Source: an uncultured Methanosarcinales archaeon
GTDB lineage: Archaea; Nanobdellota; Nanobdellia; Woesearchaeales; DSVV01
Assembly: GCA_964556185.1 (NCBI GenBank)
Contig: CAZKVI010000003.1
Span: forward strand, 2,089 to 66,088
Length of the DNA: 64,000 nt
Direction: 5' to 3'
The notes under the pieces were generated by a model that saw only the letters and a list, made by a program, of their open reading frames with translations, had not been told where the DNA came from and did no database searches. Every line of letters begins with the position of its first letter. Positions within the stretch are counted from its first letter, which is position 1. Position numbers and translations under genes: made by a program. This document shows, piece by piece, positions 12,588 through 63,631 of this stretch.

Positions 12588-13892
12588 ATGGTAAAAAGAG
12601 CTGGAATGAAACAAAAGTTAGGAGTAATTAAGGAATTTGAAGACTTAATAGTTGAATATCCTATTATTGGTTCTGTTAATATGACTTCTTTACCAACTAA
12701 AACAGTTCAGCAAATGAGAGCTCAATTAAGAAAAAAAGGCGTTGTCCTTAAAATGAGCAAAAGAAGATTAATTAATATTGCAATAAATAATTGTAAAGAG
12801 AAAAAGAAAGGTATTGAAAATCTTCTACCTGAACTTAAAGGTATGCCAGCATTAATATTCACAAAAGAAAATCCTTTTGCATTATACAAGTTTTTATCTA
12901 AGAATAAATCATCTGCTCCTGCAAAAGCAGGCCAAATAGCTCCAAATGAAATTGTAGTTAAAGCAGGTCCAACAGGTTTTTCACCAGGACCAATTATTGG
13001 AGAACTAGGTGCTGTAGGAATTAAAGCAGGTGTTGATGGTGGAAAGATTGCAATCAAAGCAGATAGTGTTGTAGCTAAAGAAGGAGATGAAATTACAGAA
13101 CAATTAGCAGCAATATTAACAAGACTTGGTATTGAACCAATGGAAATTGGTTTAAACATGGTTGCAGTATTTGAAGAAGGTAATGTTTATGATAGTAAAA
13201 TCTTAGCAATTGATGAAGATGAATACATGAATAACATAACAACAGCAGCAACTTGGGCTTTCAACTTAGCAGTTGAAGCAGCAATACCAACACCAGATAC
13301 AACAGAATTACTATTACAAAAATGTTTCAAAGATTCCAAAGCAGTTGCAATGGAAGGAAATATTATGGCAGATGCTGTTGCAGAAGAATTACTTGCAAAA
13401 GCTGAAAGAGAAATGTTAGCTCTAAAAGCAGAAGCAAATATTAGTGATGCACCAGTAGTTGACAAAGTCAACGAAGAAGCGCAAGCTTCTGTAAAAGAAG
13501 AAGTTAAAGAAGAACCAAAAGCTGAAGAAAAACCAGCTGAAGAAGCAAAAGAAACAGAAACAAAAGAAGTTTCCGAACTTTCCGAGGGAAAGCAAGAAGC
13601 TGATAAAGCTTCTGTGGGAAACGAAGAAGTCGCAGAGACTTCTGAAGAAAAACCAGCAGAAACTACAGAAACTAAAGAAGGACCTGAAGCAGAAGGAGCT
13701 GATGAGGCACCTAAAGCAGAAGAAAAACCAGCTGAACCTGCACCAGCAGAGGAAGCAAAAGCTGAAGAGAAAGCTGATGAGGCTAAACCTGAAGCTAAAG
13801 AAGAAGCTGCACCAGAAGAACCAGCTAAAGAAGAACCTAAAGCTGAAGAAGCTCCTGCAAAAGCAGAAGATAAACCAGCTGATGAATCATAA
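12588..13892 (+). CDS. rplP0: 50S ribosomal protein P0 (uL10) with a long Lys/Glu/Ala/Pro-rich C-terminal extension
   Basis: N-terminal L10 domain plus the GTPase-associated region. About 150 aa of KEEPKAEE repeats follow and end in ...KPADES, without the GLGALFG stalk terminus. Antisense ORFs 12722..13159 and 13187..13471 are spurious. Confidence 0.9.
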
Positions 13893-13933
13893 TCAAGAGG
13901 TTGATTAATTATTATAACAAGGAGGAATTAAAA

Positions 13934-14245
13934 ATGGAATACGTTTATGCCGCAATGTTAATCCACAAAGCAGGTGGAAAAGTTGATGAAGCTAATGTTA
14001 AAAAAGTTTTAGAAGCAGCCGGAGTTAAAGCTGATGATGCAAGAATCAAAGCTTTAGTCGCAGCTCTCGATGGTGTCAATATTGACGAAGCAGTCGAGAA
14101 AGCAGCAGCAGCTCCTGTCGCAGCCGCACCAGCAGCTGCTCCAGCAGAAGGAGACGCAGCACCAGCTGAAGCTAAAAAAGACGAAGCTAAAGAAGAAGAG
14201 AAAAAAGAGGAAGCAGCAGCTGGCCTTGGAGCTCTTTTCGGATAA
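13934..14245 (+). CDS. rpl12: 50S ribosomal protein P1 (archaeal L12 stalk protein)
   Basis: [16 protein letters not shown]..., a hinge of Ala/Pro, and a terminal [13 protein letters not shown] ggaggaa RBS lies just upstream, so the true start is probably the internal Met of ORF 13901..14245. Confidence 0.85.
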
Positions 14246-14280
14246 AGGCTTTTTAGCCTTTTTTTATTTTATTTTTAATA
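14246..14280 (+). terminator. Hairpin plus oligo-T terminator after the L1-P0-P1 operon
   Basis: aaggctttttagcctt hairpin followed by tttttttattttatttt. Confidence 0.5.
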
Positions 14281-14307
14281 GAAGTTGACAACGCCAAGTG
14301 AGATCTA

Positions 14308-15198
14308 ATGGATAAAAAAGAAAAAGATAATTTATTGAAAGACATTTCTGATAAAAAGAAGGATGTTTCTGGGTTAAAACAACAACTCAATGACATTAAT
14401 TTAGAAAAGGAAAAATTCTATCAAGAAAAAGAAACTCATTCTAAGAAGATAAAAGAATTATTATCTAATCTAAAGTCTCTAAAAAAAGAAAGAGATAAGT
14501 TTACTAGAGCTGTAAGAGAACATAAAGGTAAAAGAGAAGTTATCAATAAACAAATTCAAAAGAAAATTAAAGTAGTAAGAGAATTTACTAAAGAAAAAGA
14601 CCAAGTAACTAAAAAACTCCAGATTAAAGACGATCCTGTAAAATTAAAGAAAACTATTGACCATTTAGAGCTTTCAATTGAAATAGAAGCAATGTCTTTT
14701 AAAAAAGAACAAGGAGTTATGAAAAAAATCAAGGAATTAAAGAAGAAATACGAAGATCTTTCTGAAATTACAGTTGTTCATAAAAAAATTAAAGAATTTT
14801 CAAAAGAAATAAAGAAATTAAAAAAAGAAGCAGACCAAATTCATAGAAGTGTTCAAGAGAATGCTAAAAACTCTCAAGAAAGACATGAAAAACTATTAGG
14901 ATTTTCTAAAGAAATTGACGAATTAAAAGAAAAAGAAAAAACAGCTTATGAAAAATTCTTAGAACAAAAGAAAGCTTTTACTAAAATAAATAATAAACTA
15001 AAAGAAATCTTGCCTGATATGAATAAATTACATGGAAAACTAAGTGACGAAAAGAAAAAACAAAGAAAAAAACACGAAGAAAAACAACAAAAAACTCTTC
15101 AAGAAAAAAAGAAACAAGTAAACGAGAAACTCAAAAAAGGCAAAGGCGTTACATTAACAATGGAAGATCTTCTAGCATTTCAATCTGGTAAAGAATAA
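14308..15198 (+). CDS. Lys/Glu-rich coiled-coil protein
   Basis: 296 aa, highly charged heptad-like sequence. Function unknown. Confidence 0.45.
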   Translation: MDKKEKDNLLKDISDKKKDVSGLKQQLNDINLEKEKFYQEKETHSKKIKELLSNLKSLKKERDKFTRAVREHKGKREVINKQIQKKIKVVREFTKEKDQVTKKLQIKDDPVKLKKTIDHLELSIEIEAMSFKKEQGVMKKIKELKKKYEDLSEITVVHKKIKEFSKEIKKLKKEADQIHRSVQENAKNSQERHEKLLGFSKEIDELKEKEKTAYEKFLEQKKAFTKINNKLKEILPDMNKLHGKLSDEKKKQRKKHEEKQQKTLQEKKKQVNEKLKKGKGVTLTMEDLLAFQSGKE

Positions 15199-53072: not shown

Positions 53073-53177
53073 TTACTTTTAGTATAAAATCAAACTAAAC
53101 ATTTATATATACTATTTCTTAGAAATTATACTATTGTGGGTAATCAATTAAACTTTCCGAAGGAAAGCAAGAAGTCG

Positions 53178-54143
53178 ATGAGACTTCTGTGGAAGAGGAT
53201 AATATTAGTTTTATCTATATTTCTTGCTACATTGCAGACTACTCTAGCTTATTCTTGGAGTGAGTTTGTAAGCACAACAATGAAAATATACAATGCTCAA
53301 GCAGATTTCTTTTCTAATATATTTAATGCAGCACCTCCTTTATTCCATGCACTCTTTTATTGGCTTTTTATCTATATTGCAATCTTCAGAAAATATGTAA
53401 AACCAAAATTAGGAGCAGGTTTTGCATTGGGAATGCCTGTTTTATTAGCTCTTGGGGTTGTTACAGCTGAACGCTTAACAGGAGTAAGCTTTTTTTGGAT
53501 GTTTTTAATCTTTTTTGGAATATATAAAACATTGTTTGTAATTCTTGCATTCAGAAAAGCTAATTTTCCAGTAATTTTAATTGGATCATTAGCTTTTATT
53601 ATTGCATTTGTTCTTTTATTATTTTACCAACCAGCATGGTTTATTGATTTTAGACAAGATCATCCACTTATTATGTTATTAGGATATATTTTGTTTGCAA
53701 TCTTTTCAATAATTACTTTATTTGGTGCTTTTAGATACATAATTGGTGGAGGTTATAGTAATATTCAATGGCCACCTCCATTTAGACAAACATATAAAGA
53801 TTTATATGGTGATCCAGGATCCTCCTCCTCTTCAGGTCAATCAACACCAAATATGTCAAGATTACATAGAAAAGCTGAAAAGTTTCTTGCAAATTCTGCA
53901 GAATACGCTGCTGCAGAACAAAAGTATGCACAAATGAATGCATCACAAAGAGCAAAAGTAGAAAAAGATATGCAAGATAGTCGAATTTCTTTGATAGCAA
54001 GGGGAACTGCAATAAGAAATCATAAAAAATATGAAAGAGATGTTCCACAAGATGTTAAACATAGATTTGAAACAGCATTTAATGCTATTATGACTCAAGG
54101 TGGCTCACATGGTGGAGCAGGTGGCGGAGGCCCTGGCCATTAA
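53178..54143 (+). CDS. Integral membrane protein with a Gly/His-rich C-terminal tail
   Basis: Start placed at the internal ATG (MRLLWKRIILVLSIFLATL, signal-like). It has multiple TM helices and a tail GGSHGGAGGGGPGH. The track ORF begins at 53136. Confidence 0.4.
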   Translation: MRLLWKRIILVLSIFLATLQTTLAYSWSEFVSTTMKIYNAQADFFSNIFNAAPPLFHALFYWLFIYIAIFRKYVKPKLGAGFALGMPVLLALGVVTAERLTGVSFFWMFLIFFGIYKTLFVILAFRKANFPVILIGSLAFIIAFVLLLFYQPAWFIDFRQDHPLIMLLGYILFAIFSIITLFGAFRYIIGGGYSNIQWPPPFRQTYKDLYGDPGSSSSSGQSTPNMSRLHRKAEKFLANSAEYAAAEQKYAQMNASQRAKVEKDMQDSRISLIARGTAIRNHKKYERDVPQDVKHRFETAFNAIMTQGGSHGGAGGGGPGH

Positions 54144-54176: not shown

Positions 54177-55388
54177 ATGGGAATAAGAGATCTTTTTGAA
54201 TCACATCTACAAAGAGTCTTTGAAGATGCAATGGCTAAAGTAGAAGAAGATCTAGAATACTTAGAACAAGAAATAGCTAAAATAAAAGCTAGAGCAGAGA
54301 AAAAAAGACAATTAATTTTACAAGCACAACAATCTGGTCAATATACAGAAGCTCAAGCAGCAGAGCAATTAAGATTTGTAAATGGCAAAGAAGAAAGAGA
54401 ACTAAATAGATTAAGGCAAGGTTTGGATTTAGTTGATGGAACTACCCCAGAAAAAGAAACAGCAGCAAAAGCAGAAATCCCTCGAAGAAAAGAATTTGAT
54501 TCTTTAAGTCATCAAGTTGAAGGTTGTGCAGATGATGCAGAACATACTTTAGCTAAAACTAGAAAATATCTAAATTACTTAAAATCACTTTTGGTTCTAA
54601 GAGTTAGAGAAACACATGAAATTGAAGCAGATATGCAAAAAATAAGAACTCTACTTTCAAATTTTCAACATGCAACGGAATCTGAACAATTAAAACAAGA
54701 TTCAACAAGAATGCAAAAAATAAAACACAATGCTCTTAAAGAATTAGAGGTACTTATAATGCAAGCATCTCATTTTCTTAAATTAGAAGAAAGAGCAGAG
54801 AGAAAAGTAGTAAGAATTGAGAGAAGAATCTTTAGCACAGAAGCAGATTTTGAAAAAGCAGACCAACAATTACAACAATTTATTCTTAAAACAGAATATT
54901 TTATTAAACAAGCATGGCATAATCAACAAGCTTATCAAAAAGCAGAACAACAATTTGGTCAATTAAACTCAGCTTTACATTCCCTGAATGATGATTTTAT
55001 TAATGTTTATAGGCCATTATTAGCAATGACAAAAAAAGTTTATCTAAGAGAACAAAGAATGGAATCTGCATTAAAACAAGTAAGGAACATGGTAGAAACA
55101 TTAGATACTTCATCTAATCAATTACAAAATGCACAAACTTTTAGAAGATTATTTGAACAACTTAGTTTAATTGAACAAGTTTTACAACAAGAAATGGGTA
55201 CTGGTTCTATCCAAGAGTTCTTTCCAGGAATACAAGGAGAAGTGCGAGCATTAAGAAGAGCTGAACAAGATATAGATAGAATGATCCAAGTTCTTGAACA
55301 AATAAATTCTATATTTGATGAATTAAGAAAAATGGAACTTGAAGCAATACAACAACAATCTCCTGAATTAATAGAGCTAGCAGCATAA
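54177..55388 (+). CDS. Long coiled-coil protein (Gln/Glu-rich)
   Basis: 403 aa with heptad periodicity. Stop and next start are adjacent (55388/55390). Confidence 0.4.
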   Translation: MGIRDLFESHLQRVFEDAMAKVEEDLEYLEQEIAKIKARAEKKRQLILQAQQSGQYTEAQAAEQLRFVNGKEERELNRLRQGLDLVDGTTPEKETAAKAEIPRRKEFDSLSHQVEGCADDAEHTLAKTRKYLNYLKSLLVLRVRETHEIEADMQKIRTLLSNFQHATESEQLKQDSTRMQKIKHNALKELEVLIMQASHFLKLEERAERKVVRIERRIFSTEADFEKADQQLQQFILKTEYFIKQAWHNQQAYQKAEQQFGQLNSALHSLNDDFINVYRPLLAMTKKVYLREQRMESALKQVRNMVETLDTSSNQLQNAQTFRRLFEQLSLIEQVLQQEMGTGSIQEFFPGIQGEVRALRRAEQDIDRMIQVLEQINSIFDELRKMELEAIQQQSPELIELAA

Positions 55389-55389
55389 A

Positions 55390-57348
55390 ATGAAAAACAA
55401 ACTTATTCTTATAATTTGTATCTCAATCTTTTTAATAATTCCATTATTTTCCACAATATCTTTTGCACAAGCTGGCCATTTAAAATTATTAGCAGTAACT
55501 TCTGAGACTAAAGGTGTAGAAGCAAACCTTGATTTAAGACTAATGCCAGGTACTGGAAGTGTTTTTATTGCAACATCTCCTTTAACAAAAATAGATACAC
55601 AATTATCTACAAGATTTGCTAAAGATATTGCATGCAAATTCCTCGAGAAGGATTGTTCAAATTTAGATTTCTTTTATACAATAACAAGTAATGCATCTAT
55701 TGTTGGTGGCCCAAGTGCAGGTGCAGCAATAAGTGCTTTAACAATAGCCTTACTTGAGGGCTATGAATTAGATGAAAGCTTTACAATAACAGGAACAATT
55801 AATTCAGGTGGTCTAGTCGGAAGTGTAGGTGGCTTAAAACCTAAAATAGAAATTGCTTCAAAAATTGGAGTAAAGAAAGTTTTAATACCTGCAGGAGAAA
55901 GATTTATCATAAATGAAACAATTATTTCTTTAAACACCACTGGATCAAATGCAACATTAAATTCATCAATCAATAATATTAACAATACAAACACTAATAA
56001 TAACACAACAAACACCAATTCAACACTTACTGCAACTATAAACAATACAATTGATTTATACGAATTTGGTAAAGAATTTGGAATAGAAGTAAAAGAAGTT
56101 GCAAATTTATATGATGTTATGTATGAATTTACAAATATAACTTATGAACAACTCTCAGGAGAAATCACACCAGATGATTGGTATATTGAAACAATGAGAA
56201 ATATTTCTAATGATCTTTGCGAAAGAAGCAATAACTTACAAAATGAACTTACTACACCTGAAAACACATCTAGTGATTACTTGTTTTACTCAACAGGATT
56301 AAATTTAACACAAAATGCAGAATCTGCATTATCTGAACAAGATTATTACTCAGCAGCATCATTTTGTTTTGGAGCAGCAGGTAAATTTGGTTATTTATTT
56401 CTAAAAAAACAAAATATGACAAACAATGAAACCTTAATAATACTTAATGAAACAAATGGTTCTATTGATTCAATAAGACAAAAAATAAACAATATTAATT
56501 TACAAACAATCACAGATATTCAAACTTATGTTATTGTAAATGAAAGATTAAAAGAAGCAGAGAACACATTAACTCTTGTTAATGATGCTCTTCAAGAATA
56601 TATTAATATGACTTTAACTTTAACAAATGCTAATATAACAGAAACAAATAACACAAAACAACAACTTGAACAAGTTCATGATATACTTTTACAAAAATTA
56701 GCTTATTCAATAGAAAGATTAAATAGTGCAGTTGCCTGGAGTAGCTTTTTCAATAAACCAGGTTCTACTTTTAACTTTAGCCCAGAATCTATTCATCAAT
56801 CATGTATAATAAAACAAAAAGAAGTAGAAGAAAGAATAAACTATATTCAAATTATTACTCTATTAGGTTTAGAAGGTGTAAAACAAGGTTTAGATGATGC
56901 AAAACAAGAAGAAAAAAGAGGTAATTTTATTCTTTGTCTTTTCAAAGCATCTAAAGCAAAAGCAGAAGCAGATACTGTAATGAGTATGATTGGAGCTAAA
57001 GAAGACTCAATTCAAGGTATTATTGATACAAGATTAACATTAGCTACAGATGTTATACTAAAACAACAACGCCAAGCTAGTTTCCCAATATTTGGTTATA
57101 GTTATTATGAATATGCAAAGACATTACAAATTGATGATCCTAGTTCTGCTTTGATATATTCTCATTATGCTCTTGAATTAAGTAACCTTGATATGTACTT
57201 TGAAAAAGAGCTTGATTTAGCTACTTTAGATACAGAGCTAACTAAAGATCCTGGCAATACATTCTATTTTATAATTGGATTTATTCTAGGAATATTAGTA
57301 ACAATACTCTATGTAATGAATTTTAAACCAAAGAAATCAAAAAAGTAA
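55390..57348 (+). CDS. Membrane-anchored extracytoplasmic Lon-type (S16) protease-domain protein without an AAA+ module
   Basis: N-terminal signal. NASIVGGPSAGAAISALTIALLEG has the Lon catalytic Ser motif. SVGGLKPKIEIASKIG has the catalytic Lys. An Asn/Thr-rich linker carries many N-x-S/T sequons. C-terminal TM FYFIIGFILGILVTILYV. Confidence 0.55.
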   Translation: MKNKLILIICISIFLIIPLFSTISFAQAGHLKLLAVTSETKGVEANLDLRLMPGTGSVFIATSPLTKIDTQLSTRFAKDIACKFLEKDCSNLDFFYTITSNASIVGGPSAGAAISALTIALLEGYELDESFTITGTINSGGLVGSVGGLKPKIEIASKIGVKKVLIPAGERFIINETIISLNTTGSNATLNSSINNINNTNTNNNTTNTNSTLTATINNTIDLYEFGKEFGIEVKEVANLYDVMYEFTNITYEQLSGEITPDDWYIETMRNISNDLCERSNNLQNELTTPENTSSDYLFYSTGLNLTQNAESALSEQDYYSAASFCFGAAGKFGYLFLKKQNMTNNETLIILNETNGSIDSIRQKINNINLQTITDIQTYVIVNERLKEAENTLTLVNDALQEYINMTLTLTNANITETNNTKQQLEQVHDILLQKLAYSIERLNSAVAWSSFFNKPGSTFNFSPESIHQSCIIKQKEVEERINYIQIITLLGLEGVKQGLDDAKQEEKRGNFILCLFKASKAKAEADTVMSMIGAKEDSIQGIIDTRLTLATDVILKQQRQASFPIFGYSYYEYAKTLQIDDPSSALIYSHYALELSNLDMYFEKELDLATLDTELTKDPGNTFYFIIGFILGILVTILYVMNFKPKKSKK

Positions 57349-57658: not shown

Positions 57659-58192
57659 ATGGCCACTGGTAAGAATGTCGACAGAAGTTTATTACAAGTT
57701 GTACGTTATAGGGGTATTTTTGATATAGAAGCAGTCTATAAAGCTGTATATGATTGGTTGAGATCAAGAGGTATGGAAGTCCAAGAAACAAAATTCAAGA
57801 CATATGATAGGGCATATGGAAGAGAACATCAAATTAAATGGAGTGCTTGGAATAATGAAACTGACTTTGTAAAAAATTGGATATTTATCACATGGAGATT
57901 TATTGATGTTGTAGAATTAGAAGTAGTTAAAGATGGAAAAAAGAAAAAGTTAAGTAAATGTCAAGCAGATATTAGAATTCAACACGCAATGGAGTTTGAT
58001 TATAGTGAACGTTTTACAAAAACAGTGTACCAAATCCGCGCATTGGAATTTATTACAGGTTGGTTATTTAGAAAAAAGATAGATACTTTATGGGAAGATA
58101 AGTTAAGGTTTAAATGTTATGAATTGCAAAATGTTGTAAAAGAAACATTAGAAGCTCAAACAAAAGGTAATGAGCATTATGATGTATGGTAA
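57659..58192 (+). CDS. Hypothetical protein (paralogue 1 of a tandem pair)
   Basis: 177 aa. Blocks shared with the next ORF: VYDWLRSRG / VDRWLREKG, VVKDGKKKKL / VEKDGMKKKL, and W-rich segments. Confidence 0.4.
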   Translation: MATGKNVDRSLLQVVRYRGIFDIEAVYKAVYDWLRSRGMEVQETKFKTYDRAYGREHQIKWSAWNNETDFVKNWIFITWRFIDVVELEVVKDGKKKKLSKCQADIRIQHAMEFDYSERFTKTVYQIRALEFITGWLFRKKIDTLWEDKLRFKCYELQNVVKETLEAQTKGNEHYDVW

Positions 58193-58214: not shown

Positions 58215-58715
58215 ATGGTCGAGAGAAGAATTGTTGTAGATACAATGAGGATGCATTACCAAGGTCTTCTTAATGTAGTTGAATTTATGGAATTTGTAGA
58301 TCGTTGGCTTCGTGAAAAAGGTTATTATAAAAAAATTGGCAGAACAGATGAAAAAGTTTTCAAAGAAAACAGACAAGTAGAAATTGAATGGGAACCTTGG
58401 AAAAAAGTTGATGAAAATGCAAAAATAGTTATTCAAATGAAATTCTTATTCACAAATGTAAAAGATGTTGTTGTAGAAAAAGACGGAATGAAGAAAAAAC
58501 TTCAACAAGCCAAGATCTCAGTTACAATGATGGGACTTATGGAATCAGACTGGGAACACAAATGGGAAAAAAGACCTTTTTACTTCTTATTCTTCTCAGT
58601 TATTGATCAGTTTGTCTGGAAAATTCATTCTGATAAGTACTTTGGTTTAGTAGCAGAAGACTGCACAGAACTAAGAAACGAAATGAAAGCTTTCTTGAAT
58701 TTGTATAGGTTCTGA
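58215..58715 (+). CDS. Hypothetical protein (paralogue 2 of a tandem pair)
   Basis: 166 aa, colinear similarity with 57659..58192. Confidence 0.4.
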   Translation: MVERRIVVDTMRMHYQGLLNVVEFMEFVDRWLREKGYYKKIGRTDEKVFKENRQVEIEWEPWKKVDENAKIVIQMKFLFTNVKDVVVEKDGMKKKLQQAKISVTMMGLMESDWEHKWEKRPFYFLFFSVIDQFVWKIHSDKYFGLVAEDCTELRNEMKAFLNLYRF

Positions 58716-58773: not shown

Positions 58774-58938
58774 GTGGGGGTAGCCCGTAAGAAGATTCTT
58801 TGGGTTCCCTAGAGCAAAGTCTGGTCAAATGCGCAGGACTTAAGATACACTGAAGACAGCCTTCACGGCAAAGTCTTTGTTTTGAATTAGACATCCTGTC
58901 ACTTAGTGTGTTCGGGGGTTCGAATCCCCTCCCCCACA
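58774..58938 (+). tRNA. tRNA-Leu (anticodon UAA) with two introns: ~29 nt between positions 9 and 10, and ~48 nt at 37/38
   Basis: Acceptor GUGGGGG/CCCCCAC plus A. After UA comes an insert [GCCCG...CUAGA]. D-arm GCA-AAGUCUGGUCAAA-UGC. G-CAGGA-CUUAAG[intron]A-UCCUG. Variable arm ~15 nt. T-arm GGGGG-UUCGAAU-CCCCU. Mature length ~88 nt fits a class II tRNA. Confidence 0.55.
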
Positions 58939-59068
58939 TTTTATTCTTTATTTTCTATTTTATGTGCGTACTGCTTTGCAAAGCAAATGCAGTACTCGCT
59001 GACTTTTTCCCAAGTTTTTACGAACGTAAAAAGCTGGTGGGGATCATCCTCCCCCACATTTTCTTTTT
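58926..59068 (+). repeat. Direct repeat of the tRNA-Leu 3' end (CCTCCCCCACATTTT at 58926..58940 and 59054..59068) bracketing a 110-bp spacer with a long palindromic hairpin
   Basis: Spacer contains gcgtactgc-tttgcaaagcaaa-tgcagtactcgc. The second copy forms an acceptor-like minihelix ggtgggg-atcatcct-cccccac. Confidence 0.5.
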
Positions 59069-59083
59069 GATTTTGATTAAGAA

Positions 59084-60844
59084 TTAAGGTTCAGTTGGTT
59101 CATCTAGTGATGCACTTGTTTCTAAGCCACTTCTTCTTAAACCTTTAAGAGTATAAGTTGGATCTTCAAGATAACTCTCACACTGTGCTTTAATTCCAAG
59201 AGCAGCCATAAGCATTTTATCTTTATCATCGTAAATTTCTCTAATAGAATCTCTATCTTTCATTGTTCTTGGATTAAATACTTCTGATAAAATTCCATCA
59301 AAAGAAAATTCATCTGCTGATTCAGATTGTTCTGTTACTTCACCAAATCCTCCTTTTGCTTTATAAGTTTCATAAAGCCTATGGATTTTATAAACTTTAT
59401 AATGGCTTAAGGAAGAAGAATCACTTGTATGGTAAGAACACAAATGATCAATTATTTGGTTTGTTTCTTCTAAAGTTTTTCTTACTAATACAAAGTTTTG
59501 AACATCTGGAATTTCACGACCTTCTTCGGCTTTCCATCTTCTGTAAGCATTTACAAGAATAACATTTTTGTATAATCTGTATAATCTTTCAAATCCTGCA
59601 TAATATTTTGTTCCTTTTCTAACATTTATTATTGGGTGTTTTTCAGCTAATGCATTTGCTCTTTCCTTTAATTGAGTTCTTATATCTCTTGTCCCATGTA
59701 AATCTTGTCCACTATATGCTGCAATAATTTCATCATAAGTTATTTCTTCAATTGACTCACCATCATCAGTTAATCTTTTTCTTTTCTTACTTCCATGTTC
59801 TCGTCTGCGAATTTCATCAGTATTTGCATGACAATCTGCAAACTTAACCATTATAGCTCTTTCTATATCTTCTTCTTTTATTGCTCTCTCTTTTCCTCCC
59901 CAACAAATTATTCCATCCCAGTCACTAGGTCTAAATATTTTGTTTACAGAATCATAATAATTTTGTTTAGTCCCCTTTGTCAAAAGATAACTAGTAACAG
60001 CAACTCCTCCAATCATTTCAACCATTGTACTATCAATAGCACCACCAAGGTCTTTCATGTAATTTTCTAAACAATTATAAATCCCATGATCGACAAAAAT
60101 ATCAGCTACTCTTTCCCCTTTTGTCATTAATTTACCTCTAACTTCAGATTTCTCTGAGAAACCATGTTTTCTTATTTCATCCCTCTTTTCTTGGATAAAT
60201 TTCTTCTTCTCAATAATTTCTTCTTCAACTCCCTCTAGTTCTTCCATTCTTTCTGCAACCTTTGCTTTATAACCATCTCTTCTTTTCCCTTCTAATTGTT
60301 TAATACTTCTTGTTAAGAAACCATGTCTTTCTATCAATCCACCAAGTTCTTCATGTTCAGCCATATTATAAATTCTAACAGTGTCTCTGATATAATGATC
60401 AATAAATTCTTCAGCAGTATCATGATATAATGCTGCAATAATTGTTGTAAGATCAGTAACACCAGCTTTGATGAGTGTTCTTGTAACTCTTAGTGGATGT
60501 TGTACAAAAGGTGCTCCTGTTAATTTTCTATCTGGTGCAATTCTATATTTCTCAAAACTATCATACAATGCAACTTTTAAGAATGTTTGTTCATCATCTT
60601 CTAAAGCAGAATAAGCTTCTTCTTGACCTCTATAAAGCATTCCAACAACGCTTTCGAGTTTTTCTTCTTTGTCTTTAAAATCAACTTTAAAGCTATCATC
60701 AGAATCTTTGTTTGTAAAGAAAGCAACCATTCCATGATCTATTCGACTTAAATAAAGCTCATTTCTTCCAATAAGCCTTTCAAGATTTACATGGCCACTA
60801 TGTGGACTTGGACTAACACCCATCTTCTCTTCAAATAATCTCAA
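59084..60844 (-). CDS. HD-domain protein of the RelA/SpoT (Mesh1-like (p)ppGpp hydrolase) type with long non-catalytic extensions
   Basis: HPLRVTRTLIKAGVTDLTTIIAALYHDTAEE matches the RSH hydrolase H-x(n)-HD motif. KFADCHANTDEI matches K-L-A-D-R-L-H-N. No synthetase domain recognised. GC-richer. Confidence 0.55.
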   Translation of the reverse strand: MRLFEEKMGVSPSPHSGHVNLERLIGRNELYLSRIDHGMVAFFTNKDSDDSFKVDFKDKEEKLESVVGMLYRGQEEAYSALEDDEQTFLKVALYDSFEKYRIAPDRKLTGAPFVQHPLRVTRTLIKAGVTDLTTIIAALYHDTAEEFIDHYIRDTVRIYNMAEHEELGGLIERHGFLTRSIKQLEGKRRDGYKAKVAERMEELEGVEEEIIEKKKFIQEKRDEIRKHGFSEKSEVRGKLMTKGERVADIFVDHGIYNCLENYMKDLGGAIDSTMVEMIGGVAVTSYLLTKGTKQNYYDSVNKIFRPSDWDGIICWGGKERAIKEEDIERAIMVKFADCHANTDEIRRREHGSKKRKRLTDDGESIEEITYDEIIAAYSGQDLHGTRDIRTQLKERANALAEKHPIINVRKGTKYYAGFERLYRLYKNVILVNAYRRWKAEEGREIPDVQNFVLVRKTLEETNQIIDHLCSYHTSDSSSLSHYKVYKIHRLYETYKAKGGFGEVTEQSESADEFSFDGILSEVFNPRTMKDRDSIREIYDDKDKMLMAALGIKAQCESYLEDPTYTLKGLRRSGLETSASLDEPTEP

Positions 60845-60893: not shown

Positions 60894-61373
60894 TTAAGCA
60901 ATATTCCACATGTCATCGCCTACATGGTGGATATTCTCAATGACTTTCCCAGAATTCATTCCTAACATTTCCTCAGAATTAAACAAAACCTTACCAATTG
61001 CCAGAGCTTTTCCATGTGTTTCATCAACAATAACTACAAACTCACCAACTTTAATTCCTTCATCAATCTTTGTAATACCTGGTCTCATAATGTCTGCACC
61101 AGATGTTACAAACTTTATTGCACCCATATCAACTGTAATATTTTTCAATAACTCTAAATTGTCCATAACCAATTTCAAACAAGGAATTAAAACATCATCT
61201 TGAAAAAAGAAATACAACTTTTGATTTACAAAAACTAAATTATTTTCTTTCTCAACTTTATCTTTTTTACTTAGAAAGTTCTCTTTTCCATACAATTCAA
61301 AAATCTTAGAATTCAATTCTTTAATTTCTGACTTATTAAGCTGTTTCCTCATAAGGTACAACCTCAATCTCAA
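60894..61373 (-). CDS. PUA-domain RNA-binding protein (Tma20/MCT-1-like)
   Basis: C-terminal VVIVDETHGKALAIGKVLFNSEEM is PUA-like. About 155 aa. Confidence 0.5.
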   Translation of the reverse strand: MRLRLYLMRKQLNKSEIKELNSKIFELYGKENFLSKKDKVEKENNLVFVNQKLYFFFQDDVLIPCLKLVMDNLELLKNITVDMGAIKFVTSGADIMRPGITKIDEGIKVGEFVVIVDETHGKALAIGKVLFNSEEMLGMNSGKVIENIHHVGDDMWNIA

Positions 61374-61746
61374 TTTTCATCTTATGATCTTTTGCTTTTT
61401 CTCTAAATTCATCAGAAAAATCTATAGAAGCTTTGTTTGTATTAAATGCAAGTGTTCTATTATCTAAGAAATCAGATTTTCTAACAACAAATTCATGATC
61501 ATCGTCGTAAAACTCATTATATTCTGCAATTACTTCTTCAACAACATCATCTGCAGTAATTTTAATTAATAATTTTCCACCATTACCAACTTTCTCACCA
61601 ACTTTTTGCAATTCTTTCTTATCAAAAGTTGATTTAATTCCACAAATACAATTACCTTTCCATGTTACAAAATCATCTTTTGTAAATTCAAAAGTAGTTT
61701 CGTGGTTAGCTCTAATTTCTCTATGTCCATATGCAAAGAATTTCAT
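61336..61746 (-). CDS. Hypothetical conserved small protein
   Basis: 136 aa. It overlaps the downstream PUA gene, consistent with an operon. Confidence 0.35.
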   Translation of the reverse strand: MKFFAYGHREIRANHETTFEFTKDDFVTWKGNCICGIKSTFDKKELQKVGEKVGNGGKLLIKITADDVVEEVIAEYNEFYDDDHEFVVRKSDFLDNRTLAFNTNKASIDFSDEFREKAKDHKMKIEIEVVPYEETA

Positions 61747-62167: not shown

Positions 62168-63631
62168 ATGAAACATGGAGTTTTGGGTAGTCTAGCTGGA
62201 TTAGTATCAATCTTATTCACAGCTCTAGCTCCAGGCAATGCAGGAGCGATTTCTCCTGACTTAAGAAAACAATTAGCAAGTGAAGAAGATAGACAAGAGC
62301 AAGTTGAATACACTCCAGATGTTTCTCAATTACAAATTGGTTTGTCAAGAGATGTTTCAACTTTAGAAGGTTGTTTAGATATTGAAGGAGAAGTTCTTCC
62401 TTGGAATGTTTATCATAAATTCAAACATAGAGATAATTTAGGCCAAGAATTAATTGCATATGCTCAAAACATTGATTCATTAACAACACAAGGAAATGAA
62501 CCAGAACAATTTGAGTTATTATTAAATGGATTACAAATTTATGCTCAGAATTTAGCTATTATTGGAAATGCACCAGAGGATCCACAAAAAGAACGACAAC
62601 TATTAGAAGATATAACACAAGCTAGAACTACTTTACAAGATTATAACACACAACAATCACATCTGGCCAATAATGATTCAATACTTCAACAATATGTAAA
62701 TAATCTAGATCAAAGTTCACTAAATCAAAGACAACAAACTCAATTATTCCAAAGACTTTTTACTTTGGATGATAAGCCACAATTACAAACACAAATTGCA
62801 ACAATTCTTAAACAAAGTTTTGAAAACATGCCAGGAGATAAGATTGGAATTATTGGTACAAATGATATTCCTTATGCAATTGCTGACAACAGAGTTGCTC
62901 AACTTTCTATTTTAGGAGTAGATATTCAAGATACAAATAGAAAACTCTTAAGATCAGGACCAGTTAGAGCTATTGACAGAGAATTAAATCCTGTTGATGG
63001 TTTTTATTTATTAAATGCTGAAAGATTAGCTCATTATGGAATTAATCCAGATGATACAATAACAATAGAAGGTGAAACAGGACTTGTTTATGCAACTGGT
63101 GATACAACTACAACTGACTTTTTATTTAGTTTATATGAACAACTCCCAATAAATCCAACACAACAACAAAGACTTTTAGTTAATTACATGTTCTCAGATA
63201 TTGATCCAGATAATATTTCTGGTCAAGTAACTCAACCTAGAAACAGAGGAAAATCTGTTGTTTTTTCATTTGTTCCAATGTTAGACACAACTGTTGAAGT
63301 TTTACATCCATCTTCTCAAAAATATTCAACAACAACACTTTATATATCTCCAGAAATGGAACAAGGTGTAGAAGATTATAAATTACCTGCATGGGGAGTT
63401 TCTCCTATTGATTTACAACAAATACAATCTTCTTTAGATCAATATGATCAAGCTTTTGCAGACTATGTAAGAGCAAATCTTCCTGAACTTGAACAGAGTG
63501 CAAGAGAACAAGCAGAAGCTTTTTCTAGAATGATTACACCATATCTACAAATAGCTAGTAATCCAGCTCTAGAATATACTATTGATGCAAATAGCTCTCA
63601 AGAACCAAATGAACACCTACCAATAGAATAA
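62168..63631 (+). CDS. Secreted Gln/Asn-rich protein (signal peptide)
   Basis: MKHGVLGSLAGLVSILFTALAPGNAGA signal. A cgaaaggtttatata BRE/TATA and a ggag RBS lie upstream. An AAAGTGATTAAT half-site sits at 62103. Confidence 0.45.
   Translation: MKHGVLGSLAGLVSILFTALAPGNAGAISPDLRKQLASEEDRQEQVEYTPDVSQLQIGLSRDVSTLEGCLDIEGEVLPWNVYHKFKHRDNLGQELIAYAQNIDSLTTQGNEPEQFELLLNGLQIYAQNLAIIGNAPEDPQKERQLLEDITQARTTLQDYNTQQSHLANNDSILQQYVNNLDQSSLNQRQQTQLFQRLFTLDDKPQLQTQIATILKQSFENMPGDKIGIIGTNDIPYAIADNRVAQLSILGVDIQDTNRKLLRSGPVRAIDRELNPVDGFYLLNAERLAHYGINPDDTITIEGETGLVYATGDTTTTDFLFSLYEQLPINPTQQQRLLVNYMFSDIDPDNISGQVTQPRNRGKSVVFSFVPMLDTTVEVLHPSSQKYSTTTLYISPEMEQGVEDYKLPAWGVSPIDLQQIQSSLDQYDQAFADYVRANLPELEQSAREQAEAFSRMITPYLQIASNPALEYTIDANSSQEPNEHLPIE

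Follow-up and report, generated by a model that had tools for sequence, protein, structure and literature searches.

To our knowledge, signaling by (p)ppGpp is considered to be confined essentially to bacteria and plastids. The archaeal model organisms do not produce (p)ppGpp (PMC8646023), and RSH genes in archaea have been viewed as the products of rare transfer events from bacteria (PMC3153485). Here, we describe a gene for an RSH-type hydrolase on the minus strand (positions 59084..60844) of a 64-kb stretch of contig CAZKVI010000003.1 (referred to as the window), which derives from a Woesearchaeota-type DPANN archaeon. An initial annotation of this gene considered alarmone metabolism to be rare in archaea. 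That statement needs qualifying, since RelA/SpoT is annotated in 41.7% of Woesearchaeota and 69% of Diapherotrites genomes, with a bacterial origin inferred (PMC8407392); because such annotations in DPANN are already published, an RSH-type gene in this lineage is not new in itself. The comparisons reported here indicate that the gene product is probably a native RSH-like HD hydrolase that serves as the degrading arm of a split archaeal (p)ppNpp system, with a DUF371 protein as its recurrent partner, and that the window carries a synthetase-less variant of this system.

The closest described systems are the small alarmone hydrolases (SAHs), the long RSHs, and the toxSAS-SAH pairs. SAHs (metazoan MESH1/HDDC3 [PDB 3nr1 and 5vxa], Mesh1-L, PbcSpo, and PaSpo) are, like the protein examined here (P0001), stand-alone HD_4-type hydrolases without a synthetase domain, and the motifs R-K..G.PY..HP, HD..E(D/E), (L/V)T(K/R), and K.AD...N are common to both. 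However, SAHs are single-domain proteins of ∼180 to 200 aa, whereas P0001 comprises 579 aa, with a ∼125-aa insertion in the HD domain, a ∼180-aa C-terminal domain, EE in the catalytic pair, and linkage to DUF371. P0001 is hydrolase-only but not "small," and it falls outside the SAH subfamilies of Atkinson 2011 and Jimmy 2020. Long RSHs (RelSeq [1vj7], Acinetobacter baumannii SpoT [7qps], and Mycobacterium tuberculosis Rel [5xnx]) gave the best profile matches (1e-14 to 1e-8, over the whole HD domain), and the synthetase homologue located downstream of the HD gene in relatives recalls their HD-SYNTH order. Long RSHs carry HD, SYNTH, TGS, and ACT domains on one polypeptide, whereas P0001 has no TGS, ACT, or ribosome-binding domain and the synthetase is a separate gene in relatives; P0001 is not a long RSH. 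In toxSAS-SAH pairs, such as Cellulomonas marina FaRel/ATfaRel, an RSH hydrolase gene lies beside an RSH synthetase gene, as in the related archaeal loci. Unlike these pairs, the archaeal arrangement is chromosomal, is conserved together with DUF371 and PUA genes, and has the hydrolase first, and the locus in the window has no synthetase. In the literature searched, the architecture of the family (C-terminal domain and insertion), the linkage to DUF371, and the division of hydrolase and synthetase into separate genes are undescribed.

The gene and the parts of its product are as follows; residue numbering throughout is that of the 579-aa form, P0001.

59084..60844, minus strand: RSH-type (HD_4-like) hydrolase of an unnamed family (open reading frame, identity to the NCBI protein, and family profile)
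60365..60547, minus strand: HD core, N-terminal half, P0001 ∼93 to 153 (phmmer against MESH1, profile against RelA, and invariant columns)
59999..60373, minus strand: insertion of the archaeal branch, P0001 ∼151 to 275 (columns gapped in the hhalign comparison of alignments A2 and A4, and AlphaFold2)
59798..59989, minus strand: HD core, C-terminal half, P0001 ∼279 to 342 (profile against RelA, alignment of the short branch, and invariant columns)
59087..59638, minus strand: family-specific helical C-terminal domain, P0001 ∼396 to 579, ∼180 aa (conservation across both the archaeal and bacterial branches)

The open reading frame (ORF) is uninterrupted and encodes 586 aa from a TTG at 60844. An ATG at 60823 is the likely start, and the resulting 579-aa form is identical to the NCBI-predicted protein.

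The relationship of P0001 to RSH enzymes is faint in single-sequence comparisons and significant in profile comparisons. P0001 alone matched Pfam HD_4 (PF13328) with an E value of 4.4e-4 and 20.4 bits, under the gathering score of 27.2, NCBIfam spoT_relA with 2e-5, and human MESH1/HDDC3 in the PDB (3nr1) with 5e-5 (phmmer). These matches were all subthreshold and all confined to the first 50 HD-core residues. HD_4, HD, and spoT_relA were the only Pfam and NCBIfam families retained; matches of P0001 to Cas_Csm6_HEPN (E value, 0.088) and GHD were present in no relative and were dismissed as noise. Relatives were likewise hard to retrieve. A word-indexed homologue search returned P0001 itself only (and just three proteins when alignment A2 was used), and a related-locus search with the single protein gave no relative among GTDB representative genomes. 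When 1.84 billion representatives were searched exhaustively with phmmer, 72 relatives were recovered. In this phmmer set, which includes some ordinary short SAH-like proteins, 20 of 73 proteins matched Pfam HD_4 (best E value, 1.7e-35).

Alignment A2 comprises 29 relatives of 430 to 730 aa that are 18 to 30% identical to P0001. Its profile gave 19 PDB matches at E values of ≤1e-5 (1e-14 to 9e-6), all of them RSH hydrolase domains, namely those of RelA (8fr8, 1.1e-14), Rel (5xnx), SpoT (7qps), MESH1 (2.6e-12), and small alarmone hydrolases. No HD-GYP, dNTPase, Cas3, or YfbR-type match was obtained when family profiles were compared with the PDB. Thus, the HMM search proposed in the initial annotation does return HD_4, below threshold for the single protein, while the profile of 29 relatives matches RSH domains only. 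The assignment to the RSH/Mesh1 type holds, since every significant PDB profile match is an RSH domain and placement in an unrelated HD subfamily was sought and not found.

The active-site motifs are conserved in both halves of the core. The stretch HPLRV...IIAALYHDTAEE (residues 109 to 139) and KFADCHAN (residues 327 to 334), previously singled out as RSH hallmarks, are present. R99, H109, H134, D135, E138, K327, D330, and N334 are invariant in the 29 relatives and coincide in alignments with catalytic motifs in RelA, Rel, and MESH1. The N-terminal half contains Y93, R99-K100, H109-P110, H134-D135, and E138-E139, which correspond to the RK..G.PY..HP...HD..ED motifs of RelSeq and MESH1. The C-terminal half contains LLT282, Y289-Y290, and K327-F-A-D330-C-H-A-N334, the counterpart of VTK...KLADRLHN in Rel and SpoT, and a second stretch of the A2 profile sets KFADRxAN on vKvADRLHN of RelA. 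Twelve positions are invariant in A2 (R99, H109, H134, D135, E138, Y289, Y290, K327, D330, N334, K419, and G510). In a 48-sequence alignment, an extension that includes very divergent archaeal members found later, R99, H109, H134, D135, E138, T282, K327, and D330 are invariant even in the hyper-divergent sequences, N334 is kept in 44 of the 48, and K100 is common. The counterpart of the metal-binding tetrad H...HD...D (H109, H134, D135, and D330) is therefore present in 48/48 sequences. The equivalent tetrads are H53, H77, D78, and D144 in RelSeq and H35, H61, D62, and D122 in MESH1, and the catalytic ED pair is E81-D82 and E65-D66, respectively. The invariant positions of the family are those that bind Mn2+ and substrate in both enzymes. 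At the second position of the ED pair, P0001 (E139) and most archaeal-branch proteins have E, and bacterial members and some divergent ones have D. Because the catalytic positions are invariant among sequences that are otherwise only 18 to 30% identical, as expected from purifying selection on the active site, the residue pattern is apparently that of an active enzyme and not of a decayed one.

P0001 belongs to a family with two branches. The bacterial branch, of ∼386 aa (P0029, P0161, and P0089; loci L003 to L008), contains more than 1,000 clusters, mostly of the Desulfobacterales type; each named member is annotated as "hypothetical protein," and Pfam HD_4 fails to capture the branch. The alignment of the bacterial branch with SpoT (7qps, 9e-10) and RelSeq (1vj7, 3e-8) is contiguous and spans their entire HD domain, including KLADRLxN. 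Archaeal and bacterial branches align over their full length (hhalign probability, 100%; E value, 2.7e-45) and thus constitute one family. The bacterial proteins share the HD core and C-terminal domain of P0001 but lack the ∼125-aa insertion and have ED instead of EE. In one lineage, an acyl-ACP thioesterase gene follows the bacterial family member.

The additions to the HD core are also defined by this comparison. The initial annotation had described a large insertion and a C-terminal region of ∼250 aa, and both are borne out, the region being without a Pfam match. The insertion follows the HD..EE helix and is specific to the archaeal branch. The C-terminal domain, for which there was no match in Pfam, the PDB, or BFVD, contains HP, RLYxxYKN, CSYH, GG..VT, FDG, and LY..K..M..AA motifs in P0001; RLYxxFKN, CxYH, GG..VT, FDG, and LY.DK.LM..AAL are common to both branches. 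AlphaFold2 (AF2) with the family alignment gave a confident, compact, almost all-helical model (pLDDT, 86.9; pTM, 0.90), whereas the single-sequence model was unusable (pLDDT, 33.5). In the model, the insertion forms a long helical hairpin (residues 154 to 178 and 184 to 221), a small beta hairpin (225 to 234), and two more helices. Past the HD domain, the model consists of helices only and bears no relation to the SYNTH fold, and P0001 gave no RelA_SpoT, TGS, or ACT match in Pfam or NCBIfam, in agreement with the earlier statement that no synthetase domain is present.

The HD gene lies downstream of two genes whose arrangement recurs in other archaea.

61336..61746, minus strand: DUF371 protein (Pfam DUF371, 5.6e-26), with its end overlapping the start of the PUA gene
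60894..61373, minus strand: universal archaeal PUA-domain protein (arCOG04150; MCT-1/Tma20 homologue; Pfam PUA, 2.5e-22)

The PUA protein scored 148.7 bits with TIGR03684 (cutoff, 120.6) and also matched PH0734 (3.6e-26) and human MCT-1 (9e-15). The PDB matches of the DUF371 protein (7y7n and 3cbn [MTH639]) are both uncharacterized, and ECOD places DUF371 near the GutA-like PTS IIA barrel (PMC4256011). The order DUF371-PUA-HD was found in L001/L002 (P0004), L089 (P0007), the P0005 contig, L092 (P0022), L093, and L102, with the PUA gene at the same position in L001, L089, L092, L093, L102, and the P0005 contig. P0004 is a 28 to 30% identical orthologue, and its locus is syntenic with the window over ∼12 kb; in L092 and the P0005 contig, the flanks beyond the three genes differ. 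In L091, L103, and L122, the HD gene directly follows DUF371. Overall, DUF371 is immediately upstream, with or without PUA, in six of seven independent archaeal-type HD loci retrieved with the protein (the exception is L090). A reverse scan, in which metagenomes were searched with a DUF371 alignment, gave 80 loci with 67 distinct DUF371 sequences. For 41 distinct loci, 2 kb or more of sequence downstream of DUF371 was available; 12 of them had an HD-family gene, 9 had PUA, and 8 had a RelA_SpoT-like gene; the 12 include a divergent cluster seen by profile-profile comparison only (hhalign against A2, 98.2%; E value, 5.5e-14). In archaea, DUF371 is thus conserved as a partner of the HD family. 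This linkage is undescribed in the literature searched, including that on SAH subfamilies, and DUF371 structures have been solved without a known function.

These neighborhoods also show that the gene is native and vertically maintained. The initial annotation had suggested a possible acquisition and had described the codon usage as GC-richer, which does not hold. The GC content of the HD gene is 0.320 and its GC at third codon positions (GC3) is 0.136, compared with 0.316 ± 0.036 and 0.180 ± 0.058 for 54 long ORFs of the window; GC3 thus lies below the window mean, and the composition is native. Recent acquisition is unlikely because the gene is syntenic in divergent relatives, whose orthologues are ∼30% identical.

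A RelP-like synthetase gene is present downstream in nine related archaeal loci, four of which hold a recognizable family hydrolase. In L103, L168, and L170, the RelA_SpoT-like gene comes directly after the recognizable HD gene, and in L173 (P0031), the HD and synthetase-like genes overlap by 8 nt; the L173 contig is archaeal, as judged from its archaeal-type leucyl-tRNA synthetase (LeuRS). The synthetase-like products have 350 to 467 aa, with the catalytic domain at the C terminus and an N-terminal region of ∼200 to 330 aa without an assigned family. They matched Pfam RelA_SpoT (PF04607) with 13 to 59 bits in eight DUF371 loci, and their profile matched Staphylococcus aureus RelP with an E value of 1.6e-19, as well as RelQ and the SYNTH domains of Rel and RelA. 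The initial annotation overlooked this synthetase gene in relatives, as well as the large family with its conserved C-terminal domain and the DUF371 linkage.

The synthetase-like genes of L103, L143, L147, L150, L154, L168, L169, and L170 lie ∼1.3 to 2.0 kb downstream of DUF371, two genes after it. Further ones were seen at L173:3359-4762 and at L100:543-1427, the latter directly after DUF371. For the gene between DUF371 and the synthetase in L143, L147, L154, L169, and L150, family membership was unsupported by hhalign (E values, 0.01 to 0.2). Genes without a Pfam match at such positions form group c5 (L143:5002-6408, L147:3375-4700, L154:609-2093, and L124:2935-4320), group c4 (L169:4282-5391, L115:1894-3696, and L149:5462-7459), and group c2 (L139:3802-5319 and L150:507-2030). 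Their products have 370 to 670 aa, and the genes directly follow DUF371 or PUA, the usual position of the HD family. In group c5, the motifs R..H..HD..E and K..D...(N/T) follow each other as in the family, with an hhalign E value of 0.012 that is not significant. Groups c2, c4, and c5 may be hyper-divergent members of the family.

Because the family sits between DUF371 and a RelP/RelQ-like synthetase gene in related loci, we favor a role of P0001 as the hydrolase of a split system. This reading rests on homology, conservation of catalytic residues, native composition, and gene linkage. In the predicted mechanism, H109, H134, D135, and D330 would hold Mn2+, as judged from the conserved residues and from RelSeq and MESH1. 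R99/K100, E138 (followed by E139 where the ED pair has Asp), K327, and N334 would position the substrate and activate water, and a 3'-pyrophosphate (or a 2'- or 3'-phosphate) would be taken off a ribonucleotide. By analogy with the C-terminal domains of long RSHs, the C-terminal domain, and possibly DUF371, might provide regulation or substrate selection; any coupling to PUA would be of the same conjectural kind. Candidate substrates are (p)ppGpp or (p)ppApp from elsewhere in the genome or from a host, pyrophosphorylated tRNA CCA ends, and NADPH. More tentatively, and with somewhat less confidence than doubt, we suggest that DPANN archaea have a three-gene RSH-like system consisting of a beta-barrel protein (DUF371), a long, rapidly evolving HD hydrolase (including hyper-divergent forms that escape recognition by profiles), and a RelP/RelQ-like synthetase with its N-terminal extension, often beside PUA.

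Several observations weigh against the split-system role of P0001. The 64-kb window contains no synthetase-like ORF (best E value, 0.055). The neighbors of bacterial family members that were checked include no DUF371, and none are conserved. The HD_4 score of the single protein (20.4 against 27.2) is subthreshold, and the ED pair is changed to EE, which by sequence is a conservative change. In addition, a TATA-like element, TTTAAATA, lies ∼29 nt upstream of the ATG at 60823, so that the HD gene may perhaps be transcribed apart from DUF371 and PUA.

The alternative that fares best, though we consider it unlikely, is RNA-end repair, in which the enzyme would remove a 3'-pyrophosphate or phosphate from tRNA CCA ends, the neighboring RelA_SpoT-like proteins would be toxSAS-type tRNA pyrophosphokinases, and PUA would point to a role in translation. 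MESH1 and ATfaRel do strip the pyrophosphate added by toxSAS from tRNA CCA ends (Kurata et al., bioRxiv 10.1101/2021.04.30.441581), and the gene upstream of HD in the window encodes the universal archaeal PUA protein, a homologue of MCT-1. The overlap of the HD and synthetase-like genes in L173, with LeuRS following them, also resembles a toxin-antitoxin pair. However, the synthetase-like profile is closest to RelP and RelQ, which make alarmones, and the module resembles a conserved chromosomal feature rather than a mobile toxin-antitoxin cassette. PUA is perhaps a mere neighbor of DUF371, since DUF371-PUA occurs without an HD gene in seven of the nine DUF371-PUA loci with at least 2 kb downstream. 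The HD protein itself gave no sign of an RNA-binding domain.

It is less probable still that P0001 is a phosphatase of nonalarmone nucleotides, such as a MESH1-like NADPH 2'-phosphatase or an enzyme for the salvage of scavenged hyper-phosphorylated nucleotides. MESH1 is the best single-sequence PDB match, and a passage of bioRxiv 10.1101/2021.04.30.441581 cites it as a reported NADPH phosphatase in an organism without synthetase; the window, too, has no synthetase gene. De novo nucleotide synthesis is missing from many DPANN genomes (PMC8407392), and salvage would suit a host-dependent symbiont. Against this, a RelA_SpoT homologue adjoins the family in four related loci, which points to 3'-pyrophosphate chemistry across the family.

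The proposal of the initial annotation that the gene is a horizontally acquired anti-phage or counter-defense enzyme that degrades alarmones now appears very improbable. SAHs are common in phages and prophages, where they neutralize toxSAS toxins (Jimmy et al., bioRxiv 10.1101/575399), and the survey of DPANN genomes infers a bacterial origin of their RelA/SpoT genes (PMC8407392). The native base composition and the synteny kept across deeply diverged relatives argue otherwise. PADLOC gave no match for the HD protein, DUF371, PUA, or two small paralogues encoded downstream, BFVD gave no significant match, and no defense genes or mobile-element context was found in the flanks, where the neighbors are housekeeping genes (PUA, DUF371, a Lon-like protease, and TFE). 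That P0001 is a catalytically dead scaffold or a generic HD phosphohydrolase without specific RSH relation is hardly credible, because, in spite of the subthreshold Pfam score of the single sequence, the ED-to-EE change, and the large insertion and extra domain that could have altered function, the metal-binding and catalytic positions are all invariant among sequences 18 to 30% identical and the profile matches exclusively RSH HD domains.

A native, long-conserved hydrolase with an intact predicted active site, adjacent to the archaea-specific gene DUF371 and, in relatives, to RelA_SpoT genes, bears on the view of alarmones as bacterial and plastidial. It raises the question of whether DPANN archaea synthesize and break down 3'-pyrophosphorylated nucleotides or modify the ends of tRNAs and what part DUF371 plays therein. 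It also defines a large family, with its >1,000 bacterial clusters all "hypothetical," beyond current Pfam and NCBIfam models. If the proposal is correct, the three-part system would be an archaeal counterpart of the stringent response or else a cycle of tRNA 3'-end pyrophosphorylation tied to translation; it would provide the first functional context for DUF371, with the gene in the window as the hydrolase of a reduced, synthetase-less version. The DUF371-HD-synthetase module is of more interest than the HD gene alone.

The remainder of the window supports the archaeal setting assumed in the initial annotation. Three of its four tRNA genes contain introns; they were overlooked in a default ARAGORN run and were detected by Rfam and by ARAGORN with introns allowed.

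c29236-29357, complement: tRNA-Lys (CTT), with a 45-nt intron
c48649-48764, complement: tRNA-Ser (GGA), with a 30-nt intron
c48771-48897, complement: tRNA-Met (CAT), with a 50-nt intron

Genes for EF-1alpha, a TFE-like protein, and the PUA protein universal in archaea are present as well, and the EF-1alpha is up to 85% identical to those of Woesearchaeota/Nanoarchaeia metagenome-assembled genomes. On the basis of the tRNA introns, EF-1alpha, and these archaeal proteins, the source is a Woesearchaeota-type DPANN archaeon with ∼31% GC.

The region 3' of the HD gene contains an inverted and a direct repeat.

59030..59074, minus strand: hairpin GTGGGG..CCCCAC followed by a T-run, read from the sequence, ∼10 nt past the HD stop codon

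The hairpin and T-run are a candidate transcript end, and the hairpin overlaps one copy of a 27-nt direct repeat. The copies of this repeat (58928-58954 and 59048-59074) are 89% identical and 120 nt apart; the second sits immediately 3' of the HD gene, and the repeat overlaps a perfect tRNA T-arm (GGGGGTTCGAATCCCCT) at 58913-58930 (plus strand), which is followed by CCCCCA. No tRNA was called in the suspected region (58.76 to 58.94 kb) by ARAGORN with introns allowed or by Rfam. Candidate explanations for the T-arm and repeat are an old integration scar, a fragment of a tRNA, and a tRNA whose introns are unusual.

Convergent to the HD gene are the tandem paralogous ORFs mentioned above, at 57659-58192 and 58215-58715 (both plus strand), which encode proteins of 177 and 166 aa that are 25% identical and matched nothing in Pfam or PADLOC. 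At the syntenic locus L001, there are three copies (13245-14789). These ORFs were considered as part of the DUF371-PUA-HD module and rejected because they are found in the closest genomes only. Just upstream of the three-gene cluster of L001 (L001:2850-8393) lie PAS/GAF histidine kinases and a response regulator, an unusually rich signaling gene set for DPANN; the same position in the window (from 61.8 kb) is without such genes. The product of the window ORF at 55390-57348 (plus strand), which is syntenic in L001 (15573-17363), has 652 aa and combines a signal/anchor sequence and a C-terminal transmembrane helix with a Lon_C proteolytic domain (E value, 6.6e-9) and a low-complexity insert rich in Asn and Thr. 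Large Gln-rich or coiled-coil ORFs without a Pfam match occur at 62168-63631, 54177-55388, and 53136-54143 (all plus strand; GC3, 0.09 to 0.16), and their products are likely secreted or membrane associated, as is typical of DPANN surface proteins.

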